Notes under the pieces: generated by a model
Told to the model about the DNA's origin: nothing
The model's database searches: none
What the model saw: the letters and a program-made list of their open reading frames with translations, nothing else
From: Calditrichia bacterium
GTDB lineage: Bacteria; Calditrichota; Calditrichia; JAJRVZ01
Reading direction: 5' to 3'
Length of the DNA stretch: 58,234 nt
Assembly: GCA_023132435.1 (NCBI GenBank)
Contig: JAGLYF010000190.1
Location: 1 to 58,234 of the forward strand
In this document: piece after piece, positions 2,955-55,375 of the stretch
Layout: each line of letters starts with the position of its first letter
Position numbering within the stretch: the first letter of the stretch is position 1
Position numbers and translations under genes: made by a program

Positions 2955-2995
2955 GTATATTTCTGAAAAAAAATAAGAACCTGATCTTCCATAAA

Positions 2996-3140
2996 CCACG
3001 GATTAACACGGAAAATTACACGGATTTAATTTATTTAAGGATGATTTGGCTTTAATAATTTTATACTTTTCATAAAGTCATATTATTTTTTCTAAATGCT
3101 TTATTTTCAATACTCTGTGTACATCCGTGCCCTTCCGTGG
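2996..3140. repeat. CCAC-word fold-back element, CACGGA variant
   Basis: Left arm is ccacggattaacacggaaaattacacgg (2996-3027). Right arm is ctctgtgtacatccgtgcccttccgtgg (3113-3140). The arm words are complementary. Confidence 0.8.
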
Positions 3141-3293
3141 TGAATAATTTCATCTAAAATAATTATTAAAAATATCAATTTTATCTTCAAGATATGAAAT
3201 TAAGTGGACGATAATACTTAACAAAGTGGAAACATTACCCAAAAAAGATTATATGCTTTCGGGACAGATTTAAAAGAAGGAAGGAAGGCGTAG

Positions 3294-11311: not shown

Positions 11312-11486
11312 TACTCTATTTTCCGATATCAGTTGTATTTTTTAAAATATAGATAAATGGTTATATTATTTCAAAATATTTCTGATTTTTTGTATGAATT
11401 CAAATATTTACTATGACTGTTAATTAGCCTGAATTATTCAAATTAAAATGTGATGAAGATTATAAGTAACATATAATCAAAGATTT

Positions 11487-11726
11487 AATTCCCCCTTTGC
11501 TGGGGCTGTTGCAGAATCGATAAAATTAGCCGTAAATGTCATACCTGCGAAAGCAGGTATCCATGGATCCCCGCTTGCGCGGGGATGACAACTTGGGTTG
11601 GGGTATAAATTCCCGCTGGAGTTTACCCCGTACTTGATGCGGGGCGGGAATGACAATTTAAGACTTTTTCAGCACTAAAATTGTTAAATATTGATAATCT
11701 GCAACAGCCCCTGCTAAGGGGAAATT
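11487..11726. mobile_element. MITE-like element with 29-bp terminal inverted repeats and internal tetraloop hairpins
   Basis: The TIRs aattccccctttgctggggctgttgcaga (11487-11515) and tctgcaacagcccctgctaaggggaaatt (11698-11726) match 26/29. Internal hairpins are atacctgc-GAAA-gcaggtat and atccccgc-TTGC-gcggggat. No ORF is present. Confidence 0.7.
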
Positions 11727-11809
11727 AAACTTTTGAATCATCTTTCCGATGTTTCTAATAATAAATTATCGGAAGTCAGAAGAGAAACAAGAGTAAATAT
11801 GGAGAAGTA

Positions 11810-15842: not shown

Positions 15843-16010
15843 AACCGCAAAAACACAAAGGAATAAATCACAAATAACAAATTTCAAATGACAAATAAAT
15901 TCCAATTTCAAATTATCAAAATGATTACTATAAGTGATTTTATATTTTGGTCATTGAGTTTTGATGTTTATTTGAGATTTGTTATTTGAAACCTTGGCAT
16001 CTTCGCGGTT
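15843..16010. repeat. 168-bp AT-rich fold-back with CAAAT/ACAAA word arms
   Basis: The outer ends aaccgcaaaaacacaaagg and ccttggcatcttcgcggtt pair. The inner words caaataacaaatttcaaat and atttgagatttgttatttg are also complementary. Confidence 0.75.
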
Positions 16011-27757: not shown

Positions 27758-28720
27758 ATGGAAGGATTAAGAGAATCGGCAGAGATAGCCCTGCGCGACT
27801 GTATGGCATTAAAAGAAAATGAAACTCTACTGGTTTTAACCGATGATAAAACGACAGAAATAGGTACGACTCTTTTTGAAGTTGGCAAAAAGCTGGCTGG
27901 CGACTCTGTACTTCTTGTCATGCCGGAACGGGAGGTTAATGGTCAGGAGCCTCCAGACGCAATTGCGGAATTGATGACAAAATATGATGTGGTGATATGT
28001 CCAACCGCTAAATCTTTAACCCATACAGAAGCAAGACGTAATGCCTGCAAAGCAGGCGCCCGGGTAGGTACGATGCCGGGGATTACGAATGAAGTGATGA
28101 TCCGTACGCTCAAAGCTGATTATCATGGGATTGCAGAGCGCACCTATCAATTAAGCAAAATCCTTGATGAAGCTAATGGGGTACATATTACAACAGCAAA
28201 GGGAACAGATATTGTCATCCCAATTAAGGGTATAAAAGCTATTTCGTCAACCGGGCTTGTTACGGAAAAAGGATCATTTGGAAATTTGCCGAGCGGTGAG
28301 TCTTATCTGATGCCTGCTGAAGGTCAAACCAATGGTGTTTTTGTCGTTGATGGTTCATTTGCAGGTGTTGGAAAAATTAAAGATATGCCAATCACACTTA
28401 CCGCCGAAAATGGTTTTGCCACGAAAATCGAAGGTGGTAAAGAAGCGGTAAAATTAATTGAATTGCTTGAACCCATGGGCAAAAAAGCTTATAACATTGC
28501 AGAGTTAGGAATAGGCACCAATGATCAGGCAATTGTGACCGGCAAGATTCTCGAAGATGAAAAAGTGATGGGAACCATACATATCGCTCTTGGAAATAAT
28601 CTTAGCATGGGTGGAACTTGTAATGTCGGTATTCATCTGGATGGTGTTATTCTTGAACCTACGGTTAGGGTGGATGGTAACCTGATCATGGAAAATGGAA
28701 AATTGAAGATTGATGATTAA
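27758..28720 (+). CDS. aminopeptidase (M29/AmpS-like family)
   Basis: 320 aa whose blocks resemble the thermophilic aminopeptidase family (N-terminal LVLTDD..., C-terminal GTIHIALGNN...GIHLDGVI). The assignment is from memory of the family. Confidence 0.6.
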   Translation: MEGLRESAEIALRDCMALKENETLLVLTDDKTTEIGTTLFEVGKKLAGDSVLLVMPEREVNGQEPPDAIAELMTKYDVVICPTAKSLTHTEARRNACKAGARVGTMPGITNEVMIRTLKADYHGIAERTYQLSKILDEANGVHITTAKGTDIVIPIKGIKAISSTGLVTEKGSFGNLPSGESYLMPAEGQTNGVFVVDGSFAGVGKIKDMPITLTAENGFATKIEGGKEAVKLIELLEPMGKKAYNIAELGIGTNDQAIVTGKILEDEKVMGTIHIALGNNLSMGGTCNVGIHLDGVILEPTVRVDGNLIMENGKLKIDD

Positions 28721-28721
28721 A

Positions 28722-28759
28722 TTTGTAGAGACGTTGCATGCAACGTCTCTACAAATTTT
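28722..28759 (+). terminator. perfect 34-bp palindrome (TGTAGAGACG family) + T4; terminator-like, possibly also a regulator site
   Basis: The palindrome tttgtagagacgttgcatgcaacgtctctacaaa is followed by tttt and starts 2 nt after the aminopeptidase stop. It lies ~130-160 bp upstream of the sigma-54 promoter. Confidence 0.5.
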
Positions 28760-31034: not shown

Positions 31035-31070
31035 CCTGGATAATTCATTTCTCAACGACGTAGCGACTAT

Positions 31071-31143
31071 CCACGAATTACACGAATTAATGCGAATTAC
31101 ACGAATTGATCTAAGAATTTTTAAAAGAAATTCCTGGACCCAT
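31071..31143. repeat. CACGAATT-word element with a degenerate right arm
   Basis: The left arm ccacgaattacacgaattaatgcgaattacacgaattg is followed at the far end by aaattcctggaccca. It ends at the stop codon of the gene at 31144-31605. Confidence 0.75.
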
Positions 31144-31605
31144 TTACTTTTGAAATTTCTTTCTGAAATGTAGCAGGCAATAAACTGAAAATGAAATGAA
31201 CGAGATGATAAACAGATATATCCAGTAGGTATCAGAGTATATTCCTATTTGATAAGTTTCCCAGTAAGGAAATAGTAAATAAAGTTGTCCTCCATTCAGA
31301 TAAAATTGAAAAAGATCAAAAATAAGGTGGAGGGATTGGCCTGTTAACAGACTAATAAAAACACGACCTCTTAATGATACTGTAAAAAATGAGGTAATAA
31401 ATAAACTGACACATATAATCCCCAGAATCGAATGAAATGGATAAACTGCTGATTTAAAAACTGCCGGTAAAAGGAATTTAAAAATTTCACGCAGATAATC
31501 CGGTAATACGGTTCCGATTAGTACCAATGGAGCCAGAATCGGATATCTGTATAATCGGCTAAACAGGGCCGGTAGGGCAATATGTGTAAAAGTATCAGGC
31601 ATCAA
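31144..31605 (-). CDS. membrane protein, possibly YdjM/DUF457-like membrane-bound hydrolase
   Basis: 153 aa with 4 TM segments and an N-terminal MPDTFTH. The family assignment is weak. Confidence 0.35.
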   Translation of the reverse strand: MMPDTFTHIALPALFSRLYRYPILAPLVLIGTVLPDYLREIFKFLLPAVFKSAVYPFHSILGIICVSLFITSFFTVSLRGRVFISLLTGQSLHLIFDLFQFYLNGGQLYLLFPYWETYQIGIYSDTYWIYLFIISFISFSVYCLLHFRKKFQK

Positions 31606-33576: not shown

Positions 33577-33604
33577 TTCTTACCTTCTTATAATAAATTT
33601 TATA

Positions 33605-33743
33605 CCACGAAGGACACGAAGGTCACGAAGATAATTTATAATTTAGAGTAATATTATGATCGGTGATTTTGTAGTCGCGTCGCTACTTCTCTACATTGCC
33701 TAATATTGTTAAATTCTATAAAAAGATCTTCGTGCTCTTCGTG
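33605..33743. repeat. CCAC-word fold-back element, CACGAAGG variant
   Basis: Left arm is ccacgaaggacacgaaggtcacgaagat. Right arm is atcttcgtgctcttcgtg. The word variant is complementary between arms. Confidence 0.85.
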
Positions 33744-33856
33744 TTTAAATTAGATTCTTCCTGAATCACCGGTGTTGTGAATTTAATTAAAAATAATGAC
33801 CGGGATGTTTGTATACAATAAAATAAGTAAAAAGTGGAGTAAATTCTAGCTTTTGT

Positions 33857-37509: not shown

Positions 37510-37548
37510 TTTGGATTCCTTTTGATAAAAATGGTAATGTAAAAAAAA

Positions 37549-37727
37549 CCACAGATTACACAGATTGCACAGAAATATTGAAAAAACAATGGATTAGATA
37601 AAAAATCATGAAAATTTTTTTAATTTTAAATAGAATCTCAATTACTTCCACGTTTTTATTATAATTAATTATCTTCGGTGTTCTCGGTGGTTAATTTATA
37701 TTCTGTGAAAATCGGTGTAATCAGTGG
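37549..37727. repeat. CCAC-word fold-back element, CACAGATT variant
   Basis: Left arm is ccacagattacacagattgcacagaa. Right arm is ttctgtgaaaatcggtgtaatcagtgg. The arms are complementary except for single mismatches. Confidence 0.85.
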
Positions 37728-37858
37728 TTAAATAATTCTTTTGTTTGCCCCGAGCCCTCGGGGCGCTATGAATAGATCAAACTAATATATTATTTTTTTT
37801 ATTTAATCGCTAATAATATTATATTTGCCGGATAATAAAAGTATTTATCAGCCTTGAT

Positions 37859-37963
37859 AATTCGTGAACCAATTCGTGTTCATCCCGTGAGATATTATTG
37901 AGCATTGTCCAGATTAATTCAAATAACCTTGTTTATCTCACGGGATAAATTCGTGGACTAATT
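37859..37963. repeat. right-arm-type AATTCGTG words plus a cccgtgagat/atctcacggg hairpin, abutting the truncated gene
   Basis: aattcgtgaaccaattcgtgtt (37859-37880), the inverted repeat 37884-37893 / 37935-37944, then aaattcgtggactaatt (37947-37963). Confidence 0.8.
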
Positions 37964-37971
37964 ATTAAATT

Positions 37972-38157
37972 CTAAAAAAAGATCGCAGGAGAGGGTTTTA
38001 TGATACGTGTTTTTTCTATCGTATTGACTTCTGTATGTTCAATAATCAGTTTTGTATTGCCAGCCATCAAATAATCCATGGTTGCAAGTTTTTCATTATT
38101 TATTTCAATGTAGAATGAACCCTTTTTGCCATCAAAAAAGTGTTGTATTTCTTGCAT
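37972..38157 (-). pseudogene. 3'-truncated remnant of a small GNAT-like (YjdJ-type) acetyltransferase gene
   Basis: The N-terminal ~45 aa (FYIE...MDY...LIIEHTEV) fit the ~90-aa family as I remember it. Similarity stops right after HTEV and none continues in the other frames. Repeat-element ends flank the remnant. Confidence 0.4.
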
Positions 38158-38220
38158 TGTATTGTCTCTCCAGTTTAATCAATTTGATCTATTCATATCC
38201 CGCCCAGGCGTAAATTTAAT

Positions 38221-38335
38221 GGGTCCACGAATTACACGAATTTTATAACCCTCCCCATCCCCGAAGGCTCGGGGACTTCCCCTCCCTTACGTATAAGGGA
38301 GGGGAATATGGGGTGGATTAATTCGGGATGACAAA
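38221..38335. repeat. CACGAATT left end fused to C-rich multi-hairpin module
   Basis: gggtccacgaattacacgaatttt is followed by the hairpins ccccga-aggc-tcgggg (38259-38274) and cccctccctta-cgta-taagggagggg (38279-38304), then gggatgacaaa. Confidence 0.8.
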
Positions 38336-38453
38336 ATACAAAATCATGGTTTTCAATAGTAGATTTCACTAATTTTGCAAACTTAAATGGAACACTGTCA
38401 ATAATAAGCTGTTAGAATATATTTTATATTTCAAATAGACAGAGAATTGATTT

Positions 38454-41352: not shown

Positions 41353-41558
41353 CTGGATGCTGGATGCTAGATACTGGATGTTAGACGTAAGACGCTAGAA
41401 GCAAGACGCCCCTACATTTCACGTTTGAAGTTTCACGTCTTAAATCTTGTTCCGATGCTCTGCGTCGGAACATACTGATGTAATTTAGGGCTACGACGCG
41501 GAGCATCGTAGCCAGTAACAATTTGTTCCCCCTTAGTAAAGGGGGGTAGGGGGTTGTT
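41353..41558. repeat. composite: 7-nt stutter arm (CTGGATG/TTAGACG words), two interlocking hairpins, C5/G5 core
   Basis: ctggatgctggatgctagatactggatgttagacgtaagacgctagaagcaagacg, hairpins at 41449-41471 and 41489-41513, and the core ttcccccttagtaaaggggggtagggggttgtt at 41526-41558. Confidence 0.8.
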
Positions 41559-44203: not shown

Positions 44204-44293
44204 ATGAATGTCCTTCTTTTCCTGACTTTTTCGTGAAGCATCATAATCTACAAACCGGATCCTATAAACTTCAACTAATCGGATGCTTTTTTT

Positions 44294-44514
44294 CGGTTCT
44301 CGTTACTCGTTTCTCGTCTCTCGTTACTCGTTTCTCGCCGCTCGATATCGGTTGGCAAACTCAGTTCCCCCTTAATCCTCCTTTCCCGCACTCGCGGGAC
44401 TCAGGACAGGCTCTTTCCTAAGAGGGAGCAGATTTTTATCAACCATCATACTGCAGTAAGTATCGAGAAACGAGCATCGAGTATCGAATTCCAAGTTCCG
44501 AATTCCGAATTTCC
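44294..44514. repeat. 7-nt stutter-arm element (TCTCGTT/ACTCGTT words) around an expanded C-rich core
   Basis: The left arm has 7 units of nCTCGnn (44294-44351). The core is ttcccccttaatcctcctttcccgcactcgcgggac...taagagggag. The right arm is tatcgagaaacgagcatcgagtatcgaa followed by ttccgaa words. Confidence 0.85.
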
Positions 44515-45343: not shown

Positions 45344-45379
45344 TTTGAAAAATGATTCCTATTCCTCTCGTCTCAGAAG

Positions 45380-46402
45380 TTACAGCCTGTTGTTTGTAGA
45401 TGCAAGAGACCTTTCCGGGATGATTCGATTATTAATTCGCAGGGATGTTTTTTCTTCCTTACGATAGATAAAAACTTTTTGTTCACCTATATCCAATATA
45501 ACTACCTGATCAGATGTGAGATTTTGTTTCTCCATTTCTGCCCTGAGTGTAGCCGTCGCTTCTCCCAATGTATCCAGAGATTCGGGAAAAGTGTCATAGT
45601 GTATCGGCATAAGGCGCTCTGCTCCCAGTTCTTGACTGATCTGTATGGCTGCTTTTGGATCTGTATGTCTTTTCCAACTATATTCCCGGGGGTGAATGGG
45701 GGCGATCGGTAATAATGCCAGATCAATTCCGGGAAATCTACGTCCGGTTTCATGAAAATAGGTTGAATCATAACCGGTGTCACCCCCAAAATATACTTTT
45801 ATTTGGTTATACTCAATTATGTATCCGGTATAGCTGGTTTCCATCCAGGCTTCATCCAATCCGTATCGCCAGCCGTTATGGGAAACCGGAACAGCGGTGA
45901 TTTTTAATCCGTCTTTTTCCCATGACTGCCAGGTTTGTAATTCATTTATATCAAAATCATAATTTGGAATATATACGAGCCCACCCTGCGGGAGCAGAAG
46001 GGTTTTTATTTTTTTTTCAAACATATCCAATGAGGCTGGTGACAGATGATCGATATGCATATGGGATACAAGGACAACATCGAGGTCAGGGAGGTTCTTC
46101 GGATCGATCCCCGGCTCAACCAGACGTTTGGAAAATTGTCCCACAGTTGTCGTAAAAACCGGATCGGTCAATATCATTTTATCATCGATTTGAATAAGTG
46201 TCGTGGCATGTCCAACCCACAAAACGGATAACCGGGCATCTGAACGATAGGGATCCGTAATCCTTTCAGGAAGTTTTCGGGGAGATTTAAATAGTGAAGA
46301 AATACTCCCACCAACCGCATTTGCAGTTGATTTTATCGCCGTACAGGAGTGGATGAAAAATGAAAAATGAAAAATGAAAATAACTGTAATTATTGATTTC
46401 AT
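45380..46402 (-). CDS. MBL-fold metallo-hydrolase lipoprotein
   Basis: Lipobox FIHSC and the metallo-beta-lactamase motif VLVSHMHIDHL. Confidence 0.75.
   Translation of the reverse strand: MKSIITVIFIFHFSFFIHSCTAIKSTANAVGGSISSLFKSPRKLPERITDPYRSDARLSVLWVGHATTLIQIDDKMILTDPVFTTTVGQFSKRLVEPGIDPKNLPDLDVVLVSHMHIDHLSPASLDMFEKKIKTLLLPQGGLVYIPNYDFDINELQTWQSWEKDGLKITAVPVSHNGWRYGLDEAWMETSYTGYIIEYNQIKVYFGGDTGYDSTYFHETGRRFPGIDLALLPIAPIHPREYSWKRHTDPKAAIQISQELGAERLMPIHYDTFPESLDTLGEATATLRAEMEKQNLTSDQVVILDIGEQKVFIYRKEEKTSLRINNRIIPERSLASTNNRL
46354..46381 (-). repeat. 7-nt tandem repeat (TGAAAAA x3 + TGAAAAT) inside the signal-peptide coding region
   Basis: It is read directly in the sequence and encodes residues ~8-16 (IFIFHFSFF) of the MBL lipoprotein. 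Confidence 0.85.
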
Positions 46403-46436
46403 AGTCTAAATTTTACTTATCCGCAATAATTCTTTT

Positions 46437-46529
46437 CCACGAATTACACGAATTTGGCACGAATTAACACGAATTTTATTAATCTAATAATTAATTCGTG
46501 AAATTCGTTTTCATTCGTGAAATTCGTGG
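46437..46529. repeat. CACGAATT-word fold-back element, archetype copy
   Basis: Left arm is ccacgaattacacgaatttggcacgaattaacacgaatttt, followed by a 15-nt AT loop. Right arm is aattcgtgaaattcgttttcattcgtgaaattcgtgg. Confidence 0.9.
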
Positions 46530-46571
46530 ATCAAATAACTTGATATCTTTGCGATAATGTAAACTCCCTTT

Positions 46572-47186
46572 TTAAAAATACCTCAATCTCAAAGTGAAAA
46601 TCCAGGGAGATGTATTCATCTCAGGGGAATAGGTTACCTGAAAACCCAGGATACCAAAAAACAGATAGATACCCGCCTCATAACTTACACCCTGATCCCC
46701 ATTAAAATTGTAATACGAAGCTGCCAGCGAACCGGAGAGATACTCACCTCGCCGGTAGAGGGGAAAATAAGCACGTATTCCCCCGCGAAACAGCCAATTG
46801 GTCTTAAATTTATTTGTTACATTTAACCATTCCGGTGTAAAAAACAGTTCAATTGAACCGTTTTGTCTTACCAGCGGTTCCACGACAAAATAACGCCAGG
46901 GATTCAGTTTACGGTTTATCCCAAATGAATAGAGTAGGGGTGTAACCTGCCAGCGGAGCCCCAATCGCAGACGGTCATCTTTTACTGATATTAATTCAGG
47001 ACTTGGTATTAATTGGGAAGATATCCATAATGATGACGGATAGACTTTTGGTTCGGTAACATCAAACTGAACACTGGTTGAATCATTTATCTTCCATTGC
47101 TCGGCGTTTGAAATTCTAACATCAAGCGTGGAGATGATTATTAGAATTAATAAAATAACAGGCATCTTTTTAAAATTTTCTGACAT
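46572..47186 (-). CDS. hypothetical outer-membrane beta-barrel-like protein
   Basis: Signal peptide, alternating hydrophobic pattern and a C-terminal ...LRLRYF (aromatic terminus). Confidence 0.4.
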   Translation of the reverse strand: MSENFKKMPVILLILIIISTLDVRISNAEQWKINDSTSVQFDVTEPKVYPSSLWISSQLIPSPELISVKDDRLRLGLRWQVTPLLYSFGINRKLNPWRYFVVEPLVRQNGSIELFFTPEWLNVTNKFKTNWLFRGGIRAYFPLYRRGEYLSGSLAASYYNFNGDQGVSYEAGIYLFFGILGFQVTYSPEMNTSPWIFTLRLRYF

Positions 47187-47480
47187 ATTAAAATTATTTT
47201 GATTCTGGTTTTATTTTATGAGGTAGCCCATCAGCCCGCCCCAACATTGGTCATTGAATCTTCCTTGTTGAATATTGGGCCTTCTATCCTTGGGAAACTA
47301 AATCTATCTCATTGTTATTCTGTTATAGGTCATCCCTATGGGACTTCATGTTTTGGGGATGTCTGAATTACCCCGGACTTCCGTCCGGGGCTAGTCTTGG
47401 GCCATCCCTTCGGGATTCTTATTTTGTAACTAATCTAGTTTACGGATTAAATAAATACATAAATCCGTGGTCTATTACAA

Positions 47481-47589
47481 CCCCCTTAGTCCCTCCTTCG
47501 GCTTCGCTCAGGATAGGCTCTTTTTTAAGGGGGAGATGAATTTTTATCATCCGGTATCTCGTATCGAGAAACGAGTACCGAGTACCGAT
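47481..47589. repeat. half-copy (core + right arm) of the 44294-type element
   Basis: cccccttagtccctccttcggcttcgctcaggataggctcttttttaagggggag...tatcgagaaacgagtaccgagtaccgat aligns with 44367-44488. Confidence 0.8.
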
Positions 47590-47793
47590 CAAAATACGGG
47601 AACCTTTATCCGGATCACTCGTTATCAACCTTTAAAATGTAAGATATTTCATACTCGAATGAAACAAAGATGTTCCCTGAATTGAATATATTTGATATAT
47701 TCAACTTCTTGGGATAAATTTATTGTTTATTTCTTTTTTATAAGTAAAAAGAAATTTTACGAATTGATTGGAACAAATTATCAGACTTATCAG

Positions 47794-48536: not shown

Positions 48537-49136
48537 ATGAAATTAATAAGCACATTAATTCTTGTTGTTGTTCTCAGTTTTGCCGCCTTTGGTCAGGAAT
48601 ATATGACAACTTTAACCTATAACATATCGGCACCGGCTGGAGAAACAACACAATTTATCGAATCTCCCAGTTATCTGGGTCTTAGTTTTGATGGAAGAAA
48701 GTTTATTCTTCCTTTCATTTCCGTAGGTTTTTATACCGGTTGGCAGGTTTTTTACGAGCAAAGTAATATGCCCTTAAATGTCGACAAGGGTACCATCTCA
48801 GGAAACCAATATCGCTATATCAATTCTTTTCCAATTATGCTCAATGCCCATCTCTATATTGGTCCTGACCAATGTATGAGACCGTATGTCGGTATTAATG
48901 CCGGCGCCTATTTTACCTGGAAGAGATTAAACATAGGTGTTATTACAGCAGAAGAGAAAAAATGGGTTCTGGGTTTTGCACCTGAAGTTGGTATGACAGT
49001 CCCGATTGGAGATGTGCATCTCAACCTCGGTGCGAAATATAATTATGCACTGCCTCCGGGTGATTCGGAATATTATGAAGAAGCTGACCCACTTCAGTAT
49101 GTCAGTTTCCATATTGGTTTTGCCTATTATCGTTAG
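48537..49136 (+). CDS. small outer-membrane beta-barrel protein
   Basis: Signal peptide and an alternating beta-strand pattern. It is a paralog of 51052-51645 (compare LTYNISAPAGETTQFIESPSYLGLSFDGR with ISYDISIPTLDTKEFVNNISLVGFGLDAR). Confidence 0.5.
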   Translation: MKLISTLILVVVLSFAAFGQEYMTTLTYNISAPAGETTQFIESPSYLGLSFDGRKFILPFISVGFYTGWQVFYEQSNMPLNVDKGTISGNQYRYINSFPIMLNAHLYIGPDQCMRPYVGINAGAYFTWKRLNIGVITAEEKKWVLGFAPEVGMTVPIGDVHLNLGAKYNYALPPGDSEYYEEADPLQYVSFHIGFAYYR

Positions 49137-49162
49137 TCGGGTATTCCGCTAAAGTTTTTTTA

Positions 49163-49373
49163 CCACGGAATGCCACGGAAAAGAAACACTGATTGGTTCA
49201 CGAATTTGTCCACGAATTACACGAATTGGACACGAATTATCACGAATATTTCTTAATAATTCCTTGATAGTTTGTGTGATTCGTGGATAGAAATGAATTA
49301 TCCAGGATAAATAAGACATTTTATAAATTCACTCAAAATATAATTTTCCGTGTTTCTCCGTGTGATTCCGTGG
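49163..49373. repeat. nested fold-back elements: CACGAATT-type copy inside a CACGGAA-type copy
   Basis: The outer arms are ccacggaatgccacggaaaag (49163-49183) and ttttccgtgtttctccgtgtgattccgtgg (49344-49373). The inner element (49198-49306) runs from ttcacgaatttgtccacgaattacacgaattggacacgaattatcacgaat to gtgtgattcgtggatagaaatgaattatccagg. Confidence 0.85.
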
Positions 49374-49408
49374 TAAAATGTTTTTCTTCAAAATCTATTA
49401 TTTATAGC

Positions 49409-49534: not shown

Positions 49535-49630
49535 GGATTCCCGCTTCCGCGGGAATGACAATTTGTGAGAAAGTCACAGTAATATTGTGAAATACTGTGT
49601 ATTCTGCAACAGCCTGCTCTGGCGGAAATG
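49535..49630. repeat. right-half copy of the 11487-type MITE
   Basis: ggattcccgcttccgcgggaatgacaattt, ~39 nt of spacer, then tctgcaacagcctgctctggcggaaatg parallels 11641-11726. It ends 35 nt before the next ATG. Confidence 0.7.
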
Positions 49631-51051: not shown

Positions 51052-51645
51052 TTGAAAAAAGCCCTCACTCTTTTATTGATTTCTTTATCTATGAATATAC
51101 CAATACAGGCGCAACAGATATTTGGCATATCCTATGATATATCTATTCCCACTCTGGATACAAAAGAGTTTGTAAACAATATTAGTTTGGTTGGGTTTGG
51201 ATTGGATGCCAGGGAAATGAGGCACGGTAAAGTCTCTTTTGGTGTAACATTTCATTGGAATTCATTTAAAGATGATCGCCTTGAAAGAGTCAATACGGGA
51301 GATGGAGATTTTATTTCAATCGATGACCGCTCACTGGAATCATTTCCTCTCCTTGTTAACAGTCATTTTTATTTCTTCTCAGAAATTGAGTCCTTTCGTC
51401 CATTTTTCGGCGCAAATATTGGAACCTATTTTATTATCACGCGCCGGAGTGTGGATGGTGTCAGAAGATCGGATAAAAACTGGCACTTTGGATTAGCACC
51501 CGATATAGGTTTTATGTTACACTTTATGCAGGATGTTCATATTATGCTCACTCTGCGTTATAATTATGCGGTAAAGACTGGTGGCTCTCCGGCTCAAACC
51601 TATTGGAATGTTATTTTTGGTTTTGTTTCTATCAGTTTATTTTGA
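51052..51645 (+). CDS. small outer-membrane beta-barrel protein (paralog of 48537-49136)
   Basis: The TTG start is supported by the signal peptide KKALTLLLISLSMNIPIQAQ. The protein ends in ...SISLF (aromatic terminus). Confidence 0.5.
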   Translation: MKKALTLLLISLSMNIPIQAQQIFGISYDISIPTLDTKEFVNNISLVGFGLDAREMRHGKVSFGVTFHWNSFKDDRLERVNTGDGDFISIDDRSLESFPLLVNSHFYFFSEIESFRPFFGANIGTYFIITRRSVDGVRRSDKNWHFGLAPDIGFMLHFMQDVHIMLTLRYNYAVKTGGSPAQTYWNVIFGFVSISLF

Positions 51646-51647
51646 TA

Positions 51648-51931
51648 CCGGATGCTGGATACTTGATAGATGATACAGTCTGATGGTTGATAAAAATCTG
51701 TTCCCCCTTATCAAAGGGGGACTAAGGGGGTTGTTGGAATTTGGTAGCAAGAAACAGAATACGAGATACGTTATGTAAAGGCGGGTTCAGAAACCGGGCC
51801 CTACATCCAATATCCAACATTCATATCAAAACACCCCCCTTAATCCCCCCTTGATAGGGGGGAAATAGATCTCTGCCATCCGATATCCTTTATCACGAAT
51901 CTTGTATCCAAAATCCAACATCTAATATCGA
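51648..51931. repeat. composite element: GGATG/ATCC word arms enclosing two inverted C5/G5 cores
   Basis: The arms are ccggatgctggatacttgatagatgataca and tgtatccaaaatccaacatctaatatcgag. The cores are at 51701-51735 (reverse) and 51829-51865 (forward). Confidence 0.8.
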
Positions 51932-52581: not shown

Positions 52582-52617
52582 AGCCACCTCAAGATCGATT
52601 GGGGTGGCTTTTTTTTT
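52582..52617 (+). terminator. intrinsic terminator
   Basis: Stem agccacctc / ggggtggct with a 10-nt loop, followed by T8. It is immediately followed by a CACGAATT element. Confidence 0.65.
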
Positions 52618-52619
52618 AT

Positions 52620-52727
52620 CCACGAATTACACGAATTTCCCACGAATTAACACGAATTTTTTTAAAATTCTTTGACCAGTTCGTGTAATTCGTACTAATT
52701 CGTGAAATTCGTGGACCAATTTGTGGA
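52620..52727. repeat. CACGAATT-word fold-back element
   Basis: Left arm is ccacgaattacacgaatttcccacgaattaacacgaattttt. Right arm is cagttcgtgtaattcgtactaattcgtgaaattcgtggacc followed by aatttgtggat. Confidence 0.9.
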
Positions 52728-52816
52728 TAAAAAACTTGAAAATTGGTGAATGGTTTATATTCTCTATTTTAGTATATTAAGGGTGTTTGTCGTTATCCTT
52801 TTATCATATAATTTTT

Positions 52817-54022: not shown

Positions 54023-54070
54023 TGTTCCCTTAACCCTTCACCATGATGTGCTATTTTCAAGTTTTTTTAT

Positions 54071-54313
54071 CCACGAATTACACGAACTATTCCATAAATA
54101 TTTAACCTGATCTATAGCATAAATTTCTTGCGCAAAGGCGCTAAGACGTAAAGAAATAATTATTTATAAGGAATAGATTTAATTTAAAATTCAATTTCAC
54201 AATCTTGACATAAATTATTCAAAAATAAATCGTTGCGTCGCTGCGTCGTCGCGAGAAATGAATTATCCCGGTTAGTAGATATTCTTAAAATTCGTGGACT
54301 AATTCGTGGACCC
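54071..54313. repeat. long CACGAATT-type element (243 bp)
   Basis: The left end is ccacgaattacacgaac. An internal gagaaatgaattatcccgg motif is shared with 31036 (reverse) and 49287. The right end is aaaattcgtggactaattcgtggaccc, 3 nt from the stop codon of the next gene. Confidence 0.8.
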
Positions 54314-54315
54314 AT

Positions 54316-55224
54316 TTACTTTGCGTCGCTGTGAGAAAAAAACTCCGTTAATCTATTATAGGTCTCCGGTCGCCGGTCGCGGTAAAATTGCCAGTAGTTG
54401 CGGACCTCCAAATTGAGATTCAAGTCTAAATCGGCTATAACTATCTGGTCTTTTTCCTGACTTGCCTCGGCGATGATTTCGCCTCGTGGATTGCAAAAGT
54501 AACTTTGGCCAAAGAATTTGCCAATTTTCCAGGGTTCCTCGATTCCGGTGCGATTAATCGCCCCTACAAAATAACCATTTGCTACGGCATGAGCGGGTTG
54601 TTCCAGTTTCCATAAATGGTCGGCATGGCCGGCAGTGGTTGCGGAAGGGTTAAACACAATTTCAGCGCCGTTCAATCCCAGCGCCCGGGCGCCTTCGGGA
54701 AAATGACGATCATAGCAAATATAAACGCCAATTTTCGCATAACTCGTTTCAAAAACGGGATATCCTAAATTTCCCGGTTTAAAGTAAAATTTTTCCCAGA
54801 ATCCCGGATGGCAGTGAGGAATATGATTTTTCCGGTACTTACCAAGGTAGGTCCCATCAGCGTCGATGACCGCGGCAGTATTATAATAAACGCCGGGCAT
54901 TTCCTCCTCGTAAATGGGGATGACTAAAACCATCCGGTGTTTGCGCGCTATTTCCTGCATCAGAATGGTCGTTGGTCCGTCCGGAATTTTTTCGGTCAGT
55001 CCGTACCAGCGCGTGTTTTGTTCTGCGGGAAAATAAGGCCCGTAGAACAATTCCTGCAGGCAAACAATTTGCACTCCCCGGTTTGCGCATTTATCTATTA
55101 AGGCAAGATGTTTATCAATCATTGCCTTCTTAATTACTTCGAGTTTTTCTGAAACCTGCGTTTCGGTGCAGGTTTGAACCAGACCGCACTTTACTATTCT
55201 GCTCATTATTTTCTCCACAAACAA
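54316..55224 (-). CDS. carbon-nitrogen hydrolase (nitrilase superfamily; beta-ureidopropionase/N-carbamoyl amidase-like)
   Basis: Catalytic Cys context VYICYDRHFPE, an RKNHIP block and an E-K-C triad layout. 302 aa. Confidence 0.78.
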   Translation of the reverse strand: MFVEKIMSRIVKCGLVQTCTETQVSEKLEVIKKAMIDKHLALIDKCANRGVQIVCLQELFYGPYFPAEQNTRWYGLTEKIPDGPTTILMQEIARKHRMVLVIPIYEEEMPGVYYNTAAVIDADGTYLGKYRKNHIPHCHPGFWEKFYFKPGNLGYPVFETSYAKIGVYICYDRHFPEGARALGLNGAEIVFNPSATTAGHADHLWKLEQPAHAVANGYFVGAINRTGIEEPWKIGKFFGQSYFCNPRGEIIAEASQEKDQIVIADLDLNLNLEVRNYWQFYRDRRPETYNRLTEFFSHSDAK

Positions 55225-55233
55225 ATTTTATAA

Positions 55234-55375
55234 GTGTTCAAAGGTTCTGGGTTCTGGGTTAACCTCTGAACCTTGAACAGTGAACCCAAAACCTGTGAAC
55301 ATGGCAAACACCCCCCTTTGTCCCCCCTCAAGGGGGGAATTCCCGGGGTAAACCCAGAACGGTGAACTCTGAACC
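55234..55375. repeat. 7-nt stutter-arm element (GGTTCTG / CAGAACC words) around a C5/G5 core
   Basis: gtgttcaaaggttctgggttctgggtt, then the core aaacacccccctttgtcccccctcaaggggggaatt (55307-55341), then aacccagaacggtgaactctgaacc. It fills the whole spacer between two co-directional genes. Confidence 0.85.

Follow-up and report, generated by a model that had tools for sequence, protein, structure and literature searches.

Word-array fold-backs in a Calditrichia genome as possible gene-less derivatives of GxxExxY cassettes

What is the 93-bp fold-back at positions 46437–46529 of contig JAGLYF010000190.1, a stretch of 58,234 nucleotides from a Calditrichia bacterium (assembly GCA_023132435.1) that we call the window, and why do related arms recur at some ten loci within it? 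A first-pass annotation of the sequence had proposed a mobile DNA hairpin, a structured RNA or 3′ untranslated region (3′-UTR) module, or an array of phased protein-binding sites. The same arms bracket genes for the GxxExxY protein in other genomes, and the fold-backs of the window can therefore be read as the gene-less form of such cassettes. We regard it as an evenly balanced proposition that they derive, with loss of the gene, from a fold-back element that encodes a nuclease and works as DNA, comparable to miniature inverted-repeat transposable elements (MITEs) or to REPINs, the hairpin-forming doublets of repetitive extragenic palindromic (REP) sequences.

The archetype fold-back

The left arm of the archetype (46437–46475, + strand) consists of four words arranged as CCACGAATT-a-CACGAATT-tgg-CACGAATT-aa-CACGAATT, which start at 46438, 46447, 46458 and 46468. 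The right arm (46493–46529, + strand) carries four AATTCGTG-type words, two exact and two with one mismatch, and ends in GTGG; its complementary words start at 46493, 46502, 46512 and 46521 on the other strand and span 46493–46528. These start positions confirm the period of 9–11 nt that had been reported, while the AT-rich loop between the arms measures 17 nt (46476–46492) and not the 15 nt first given. We counted 30 copies of the word CACGAATT in the window, whereas dinucleotide-preserving shuffles contained 2.53 ± 1.7 (largest count, 8).

The annotation had asked for a test of pairing against shuffled controls, and the fold-back is borne out by it. The segment 46430–46535 folds with −38.2 kcal/mol as RNA (z = −8.7) and −30.2 kcal/mol as DNA (z = −8.6), a stability reached by none of 200 shuffles, and the predicted fold is the ladder that had been described, in which word helices alternate with small internal loops. 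The element ends read (T)nGCCACGAATT ... AATTCGTGGC(A)n, so that a T-run lies upstream and an A-run downstream on either strand, and the consensus running inward from both ends is a T-rich run, (A/T)GC, then CACGAATT-A-CACGAATT. The archetype lies in the spacer (46403–46571) between a gene of 204 amino acids (aa) and a metallo-β-lactamase (MBL)-fold hydrolase gene, where it sits within a decayed, older fold-back of CCGCAAAG type (ATCGCAAAGA ... TTGCGGATAA). Neither a terminator-like site nor a promoter-like signal above chance was found in 46350–46620.

Two observations concern the immediate surroundings of this site. In a contig 97% identical to the window (L238; L numbers are our handles for the contigs compared), positions 897–946 hold the reverse complement of the archetype right arm and part of the loop fused to unrelated DNA, and the breakpoint falls inside the fold-back (compared with window positions 46453–46530); either a true rearrangement took place at the palindrome, or the palindrome gave rise to a chimera during assembly. 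Four tandem units of an ATGAAAA/TTTTCAT heptamer lie at the 5′ end of the MBL-fold hydrolase gene (46355–46385, − strand) and are kept in L122 and L238.

Arms around GxxExxY genes

The exact 18-mer CCACGAATTACACGAATT was found at at least 120 loci of a one-genome-per-species collection, in about ten phyla by record titles, where by our own arithmetic about 17 chance matches would be expected for a random 18-mer in that much DNA. The titles name Bacteroidota (many Flavobacterium isolates, Chitinophagaceae, Saprospiraceae, Bacteroidales), Chloroflexota (including Herpetosiphon giganteus DSM 589), Acidobacteriota, Planctomycetota, Calditrichota and Cloacimonadota, as well as single metagenome-assembled genomes (MAGs) labelled Zetaproteobacteria, Deltaproteobacteria, Clostridia and Methanobacteriota. 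These matches are real elements, with further words and inverted partner arms around them even in GC-rich flanks. The 18-mer is also present in 29 IMG/VR viral contigs of 35–70% GC. Some matches to the pattern are coincidental: in three viral contigs (L133, L136 and L143) it lies within a conserved coding sequence (...VVIRVIRG...) and not in a repeat.

When the open reading frames (ORFs) near the arms were clustered, the only recurrent neighbours were ABC ATPases, which are generic, and a protein of 107–128 residues in L015, L070, L087 and L114. This protein is GxxExxY, and these are all four of the GxxExxY genes in the 18-mer loci; each has arms no more than about 70 nt away. The gene of L087 is enclosed by a single fold-back, and those of L015 and L114 each stand between two complete fold-backs. 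An independent sample of 80 metagenomic loci was chosen only for encoding a GxxExxY relative, and by eye most of its genes are closely framed by inverted word arrays. Flanks could be used for 69 of the genes; an inverted repeat scoring at least 30 brackets 72% of them, and one scoring at least 40 brackets 55%, compared with 4% and 0% of 70 other ORFs from the same loci that served as controls. The arms of these cassettes have a median length of 43 nt and keep a median distance of 23 nt to the ATG and 11 nt from the stop codon. CACNNAT words stand on both sides in 27 of the 69 loci and CACGAAT in 14, and some of the remaining cassettes have related GCGAATT or CGCTAAT words. Over all loci, GxxExxY accounts for 32 of the 43 ORFs closely framed by such arms, a count biased by the choice of loci. 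Inverted arms also frame other ORFs, namely a methylase-like one of about 319 aa in L138 and ORFs of 293 aa in L153 and 310 aa in L132.

The association extends to an isolate of the Ignavibacteria, Melioribacter roseus P3M-2, whose GxxExxY gene has GCCACGAATTCACGAAT 20 nt upstream of its ATG and a degenerate AATTCGTGCATTTGCAGC 24 nt after its stop codon; the closest named homologues of the window's proteins include those of Chlorobi/Ignavibacteria type, Bacteroidota and Calditrichales MAGs. At four metagenome loci (L167, L168, L178 and L171) GxxExxY genes lie amid tandem runs of near-identical, complete short fold-backs, one such unit, GCCACGAATACACGAATT..ATTCGCACATTCGTGGC, recurring about every 55 nt. 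These runs suggest local multiplication of gene-less copies beside the gene.

The cargo protein of about 120 aa belongs to the NCBIfam family TIGR04256 ('GxxExxY protein') and the Pfam family PF13366 (PDDEXK_3), with PF13366/TIGR04256 scores of 99–148 bits (cut-off 35) and 111.7 bits (cut-off 22). Its PD-(D/E)XK motif (D...ExK) has invariant D, E and K residues. An AlphaFold model from a more diverse alignment reached a predicted local distance difference test score (pLDDT) of 95.6 and a predicted template-modelling score (pTM) of 0.89; an earlier one from a shallow alignment had a pLDDT of 62 and gave meaningless Foldseek matches. The best PDB match of the better model is the Cas4 protein SSO0001 (E = 2e-5, probability 1.0; root-mean-square deviation 2.8 Å over 98 columns, 24–27% identity), followed by LHK-Exo, RecE, Cas4 Pcal_0546, lambda exonuclease, MGME1 and the AdnAB nuclease. 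GxxExxY is thus predicted to be a nuclease of the Cas4/RecB/lambda-exonuclease type reduced to a minimal core; the members of this type that are known best work on DNA ends and on single strands. T7 endonuclease I was the sole PDB sequence match of two profiles (E = 0.34–0.5), and a junction resolvase of that kind was also considered; the structural model does not bear this out, and Hjc ranks 24th among the structural matches (E = 0.07). PADLOC defence models did not match the protein. GxxExxY forms at least 8000 clusters at 90% identity in public sequence collections, and the literature describes it as of unknown function, present in prokaryotes and viruses and transferred multiple times (PMC3424549).

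The two arms of a cassette change together. The variable dinucleotide of the outermost word matches that of the partner arm in 17 of 27 cassette loci, where 7.2 matches are expected and the largest number in 5000 permutations was 15. At one host site shared among Flavobacteriia, after a gene ending ...GEAVGYSxMN and before a gene starting MExVQAIKQRFEIIG, the words read CACGGATT in L159 and CACAGATT in L162, L164 and L166, the change being present in both words of both arms, and the cargo proteins of L159, L164 and L166 are 79–80% identical to one another. Such concerted change implies selection for pairing, homogenisation of words, or co-evolution with a protein that reads them. The host gene at this site (90–94% identity) is too conserved to inform a comparison of cargo with host-gene divergence.

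Whether the arms matter as DNA or as RNA can be approached through the mismatches between them. On the sense strand, mismatched arm positions comprise 68 G·T and 93 A·C pairs; since G·T is not in excess over A·C, the arms lack the enrichment in wobble pairs that an RNA stem in the sense transcript should show, and the symmetry fits a structure relevant on both DNA strands. The explanation this bears on takes the arms as a cis-acting RNA module of the GxxExxY cassette, in which the transcript ends would pair and the stem would be processed or protected, as by RNase III at the intervening sequences (IVS) of ribosomal RNA (rRNA), with the window copies as relics left in place. Several observations suit it: the arms hug the ORF at the short distances given above, the archetype folds equally well as RNA, and the element at 49163–49373 lies inside a 3′ UTR, upstream of the terminator. 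We nevertheless consider it unlikely, because to the lack of G·U enrichment are added gene-less copies that are many (ten in 58 kb), often have tiny loops and follow a common plan of words and spacers at separate loci; the tandem gene-less arrays beside cassettes in L167, L168 and L178; solo arms in phages; and elements in divergent promoter regions (33605 and 37549). The 'structured RNA or 3′-UTR module' of the first-pass annotation is not supported for related reasons, among them the missing terminator and the T-run and A-run flanks of the consensus.

Turnover at orthologous sites and the competing readings

Syntenic contigs of relatives were retrieved via homologues of the flanking MBL-fold hydrolase, which are 87% identical to that of the window in L122 and L239, 84% in L154, 82% in L123 and 79% in L156. 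The comparison, which the annotation had proposed as a check, showed that occupancy differs between relatives. At the archetype site, L156 has an empty spacer of 48 bp, L123 and L154 have a CCGCWAAGACGC-word fold-back whose inner insertion differs between the two, and in the window and L122 the CACGAATT element is surrounded by what is left of an older, decayed CCGCWAAGACGC-type fold-back. Site 38225 is empty in L156 and holds an intact CACGAATT fold-back of 2+2 words in L123, a longer version in L154, and in the window one with a CCCTCCCC-type hairpin in its loop and a decayed right arm. Site 45366–45449 is empty in the window and occupied by various other word-array elements in L122, L123, L154, L156 and L157. 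At site 52620 the CACGAATT element directly follows a terminator in all three contigs compared (window, L122 and L123), with 4+4 words in the window and L122 and 2+2 words around a different nested hairpin in L123. Nesting in loops recurs in the window (49163–49373 and 38225–38335), in L123 (3715–3990), and in L154, L018, L044, L046 and L047. The near-identical contig pairs L123/L124, L154/L155 and L122/L239 (99.8–100% identical) differ by no insertions or deletions.

Empty and filled sites, exchange of elements at one site, nesting, and spread across phyla and viruses make the mobile DNA hairpin the best supported of the three roles first proposed. On this reading a full-length element has a left arm of 2–5 phased CACNRATT words starting from (T-run)GCCAC, a GxxExxY gene of about 120 codons, and an inverted arm ending in GTGGC(A-run). 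Its arms would act as DNA, in the form of a hairpin or cruciform, of phased binding sites, or of both, and the nuclease that recognises them would be provided in trans by full-length copies at other places in the genome. Preferred targets of insertion would be hairpin tips already present and A/T runs close to the ends of genes, and gene-less copies would have no host function beyond incidental effects on transcripts.

A number of points weigh against this interpretation. Binding or cutting of the arms by the nuclease and the mechanism of transposition are putative. The window and about 70 kb of its syntenic relatives contain no GxxExxY gene, so supply in trans within this genome is an assumption, and the gene-less copies could in principle be remnants left in situ after loss of the cargo gene. 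With flanking proteins of about 79–87% identity in the relatives, no exact junction or target-site duplication could be read. Several elements are kept at orthologous sites at which the flanking protein is about 82–87% identical, and turnover must therefore be slow or the words under constraint. At site 49163 of the window, the outer arms are of CCACGGAA type and the CACGAATT element between them seems to be ancestral there, an order that simple insertion into loops does not explain unless the site was colonised independently. The loci were picked by the exact 18-mer or by similarity to Bacteroidota-type proteins, and their frequencies are therefore not genome-wide estimates. Finally, the viral contigs have mostly solo arms of 2–4 words in short gaps between co-directional genes, and L150 (with L145, from IMGVR_UViG_3300037067_009200) has four solo arms in one orientation, all in intergenic gaps; these fit protein-binding sites better than transposition of a hairpin.

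The solo arms suggest that the word array is itself a unit, whether a binding site or a half-element, and they lead to a second competing explanation. The words would be phased double-stranded DNA sites for a conserved protein (a repressor, a nucleoid-associated protein or GxxExxY itself), like operators or 'stoperators', and the inversion would be incidental or cooperative. Besides the solo arms in short phage intergenic gaps, including the four in one orientation in L150, this accords with conserved words and variable spacers at 9–11 bp spacing, with the same change in every word between related cassettes, and with the outer words at site 52620, which are perfectly conserved in L123, where coding DNA is about 75–84% identical to the window; this conservation may reflect constraint, repeated insertion at a hot spot, or conversion between copies. 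Yet no candidate protein is known, each of the many unrelated word families in a genome would need its own, one protein conserved over about ten phyla would have to read the 18-mer, and both the complementarity of the arms and nesting in loops are left unexplained. We judge it improbable. The 'phased protein-binding sites' of the first-pass annotation may be a component of the mechanism rather than an alternative to it, and are not the best supported of its three roles. That the fold-backs are mere by-products of replication or repair, slippage multiplying the word and template switching inverting the copy, formed afresh at A/T-rich gene ends and close to GxxExxY genes with neither mobility nor function, would suit the many different words in one architecture and the word numbers that vary between orthologous copies (4+4 in the window and L122, 2+2 in L123), but we find it very improbable given identical 18-mers in genomes of about 35% to 70% GC across phyla, spacer plans common to separate loci, and an association specific to one gene family.

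Known systems and the remaining elements of the window

By their defining features the elements are not REP sequences or REPINs, IVS or members of an Rfam family, and they are probably not classical MITEs. The Rfam query recommended by the annotation gave no element at the gathering score of any family, and at a permissive threshold only generic microRNA-precursor hairpin models appeared, with at most 36 bits against cut-offs of at least 40 (best-scoring 80–100). BLAST of the archetype against 50,697 phage records and 72,556 plasmid records gave no match. In the literature on MITEs, REPs and the REP-associated tyrosine transposases (RAYTs), small dispersed repeats, IVS and GxxExxY/PF13366 we found no description of these arms, the word dimers were not found in literature text, and we found no prior description of the link between arms and GxxExxY. 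The annotation was also right to set aside CRISPR arrays: the elements have 8-nt words, spacers of 1–4 nt and inverted arms, whereas CRISPR have direct repeats of 24–48 bp and unique spacers of similar size.

RAYT genes are flanked by REPs, and here too a presumed mobiliser gene has cognate repeats on both sides. Like the REPIN/REP and RAYT system, the elements are short, palindromic, dispersed, non-coding intergenic hairpins with many more non-autonomous copies than copies of the gene (PMC3116915; PMC3733652). The REP super-families described so far have GTAG or CGTC tetranucleotide tags on imperfect palindromes of 20–40 bp (PMC3733652), and the elements lack either tag; the annotation had likewise not recognised them as REPs or bacterial interspersed mosaic elements. 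The arms are arrays of non-palindromic 8-nt words instead of one imperfect palindrome, and the linked protein is a Cas4-like PD-(D/E)XK protein, not an HUH Y1 transposase (TnpA_REP). RAYTs are usually single-copy, whereas GxxExxY is present in very many copies in public collections. As annotated, the window holds no transposase or RAYT gene in Pfam scans, which likewise found no Y1 transposase there; the only recurrent flanked gene is GxxExxY, and Pfam scans and a hidden Markov model (HMM) search of the window found no GxxExxY or PD-(D/E)XK gene in it.

The elements are MITE-like in being short, gene-less and high in copy number, in sharing inverted ends with a coding relative and in their variable presence. 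They differ in that the coding relative is GxxExxY and not a recognised transposase (DDE or other), in the tandem-word arms and in the frequent nesting in hairpin loops; no target-site duplication was seen in the diverged flanks. The IVS of 23S rRNA are sporadic across phyla, with origin and mobility unknown, and resemble the elements as a fold-back stem around nothing or a small ORF (S23p) at the tip of an existing hairpin, whose tetraloop it replaces (PMC4990558). In contrast, the window copies are intergenic and not in rRNA (no rRNA gene is present in the window), their stems are word arrays, and the cargo is GxxExxY, not the four-helix-bundle S23p. Intrinsic terminators have a GC-rich stem with a T-run after it on the transcribed strand; the archetype has no terminator-like site, and the consensus has its T-run upstream and its A-run downstream. 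Overall, the fold-backs are most likely MITE- or REPIN-like in logic and IVS-like in architecture, and they have the look of a form of selfish DNA not described before.

The foldback (FB) elements of Drosophila have long inverted arms of short tandem repeats, a variable number of units and an optional centre; the likeness is one of architecture only, FB being eukaryotic, much larger and equipped with different proteins. The short tandemly repeated repetitive (STRR) heptamer arrays and small dispersed repeats of cyanobacteria, associated with the work of Mazel in 1990 and Elhai in 2008, are reportedly intergenic, nested and common to distant lineages. STRR arrays have a period of 7 nt against 9–11 nt here, other words and a restriction to cyanobacteria, and we know of no nuclease gene described with them. 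DnaA boxes, parS, Chi, H-NS motifs and integrase arm sites were considered, and none fits the word or the spread across phyla.

A broader claim, which we put forward only tentatively and think doubtful at present, is that the fold-backs and GxxExxY cassettes form an unrecognised class of prokaryotic mobile elements, in which a Cas4/RecB-like nuclease would insert phased-word hairpins at hairpin tips and rRNA IVS would be a special case. If true, it would provide a function for PF13366, an abundant 'unknown' family of Bacteroidota, Chloroflexota, Planctomycetota, Acidobacteriota and relatives. Apart from this claim, the observations name and delimit a repeat that makes up much of the intergenic DNA of numerous little-studied phyla, yields spurious ORFs (for example 'NSCNSW' and 'IRVIRG') and may lead to breaks in assemblies. 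They supply the first genomic context for GxxExxY/PDDEXK_3, which is almost always framed by inverted, mutually co-varying word arrays, and a testable route to how fold-back insertions reach hairpin tips, as in rRNA IVS. Should the nuclease prove to read short programmable words in DNA hairpins, a compact DNA-recognition tool may be possible.

All copies in the window sit between protein-coding genes, which are ordinary chromosomal ones (tRNA synthetases, kinases, peptidases, transporters). The ten loci listed by the first-pass annotation largely stand as fold-backs: eight fold significantly better than shuffles, and two, 31071 and 37859, are solo arms. The type of word varies among elements (CACGAATT, CACGGATT, CACGAAGG, CACAGATT, CCACGGAA), and both arms of one element match. 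The plan word-A-word-NNN-word-AA-word is common to separate loci, and the copies look derived from common sources. Closest to the archetype, with the same word and spacer plan, is the CACGAATT fold-back of 4+4 words at 52612–52734, immediately after an intrinsic terminator (z = −7.4 for 52612–52730). At 49163–49373 an outer fold-back of CCACGGAA / TTCCGTGG words encloses an inner CACGAATT fold-back (49199–49287), the DNA fold of the nested pair (49156–49380) having z = −6.7; it is placed between the stop codon of the gene 48537–49136 and that gene's intrinsic terminator. The CACGAATT fold-back at 38225–38335 has a nested CCCTCCCC/GGGGAGGG hairpin in its loop and a right arm decayed to AATTCGGGATGAC; most of its DNA fold (38220–38340, z = −5.6) is due to the nested GC-rich hairpin. 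CACGAATT arms at 54070–54311 surround an interior of about 200 nt with other word arrays (GCGCTAAGACG, GCGTCGCTGCGTCG; z = −3.1 for 54064–54318).

Fold-backs of other words are found at 2995–3140 (CACGGATT / ATCCGTG, interior of about 90 nt; DNA fold of 2994–3141, z = −3.8), at 33605–33744 (CACGAAGG / CTTCGTG; 33603–33745, z = −4.2) and at 37549–37729 (CACAGATT on the left and ATCAGTG, ATCGGTG and TTCTGTG on the right; 37543–37732, z = −4.1). The solo left arm at 31071–31139 has three exact CACGAATT words, GCGAATT and a degenerate right remnant, AATTCCTGGAC, and does not fold (31065–31145, z = −0.6 as DNA); the solo right-type array at 37859–37958, three AATTCGTG words, is split by an unrelated hairpin (CCCGTGAGAT...ATCTCACGGG). 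Near the latter, at 37972–38157 (− strand), lies a truncated GNAT (Acetyltransf_CG) remnant of 61 codons, which is intact with 94–100 codons in L123, L154 and L156; its break adjoins word-array elements.

Fold-backs or arrays of the same architecture with other words (ACAAATWA, CGAGWAC/CGAGAAA, GTTCTGG, GCGTCG, CTGGAT) occur at 15871–15988, 44292–44488, 55244–55367, 41446–41515, 47540–47590 and 51640–51700. This genome therefore holds many word families, of which CACGAATT is one; a member of the ACAAAT family also lies nested within the element at the archetype site of L154. Repeated GC-rich hairpins, CCCCCTT..AAGGGGG and CCCTCCCC..GGGGAGGG, lie at 11477–11736, 51701–51864, 38250–38320, 44370–44440 and 47480–47535, and ATTCCCGC-GAAA-GCGGGAAT-type stem-loops are also present, for example at 49550–49575. 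Hairpins of the form GGGCGGG...CCCGCCCCTACA occur at about 51770–51800 and between genes in L122, L123 and L154; their other strand starts TGTAGGGG and thus has the GTAG tag of REP elements (PMC3733652), and they belong to another class of repeat, unrelated to the fold-backs, that shares these intergenic regions. At 47371–47417 (+ strand), in a 660-bp intergenic region crowded with other hairpins, there is a full-length Rfam match to the Acido-Lenti-1 RNA (RF01687), which scores 37.5 bits where the gathering score is 37. Directly after the stop codon of the gene 27758–28720, positions 28719–28758 form a perfect 40-bp palindrome (AAATTTGTAGAGACGTTGCA / TGCAACGTCTCTACAAATTT).

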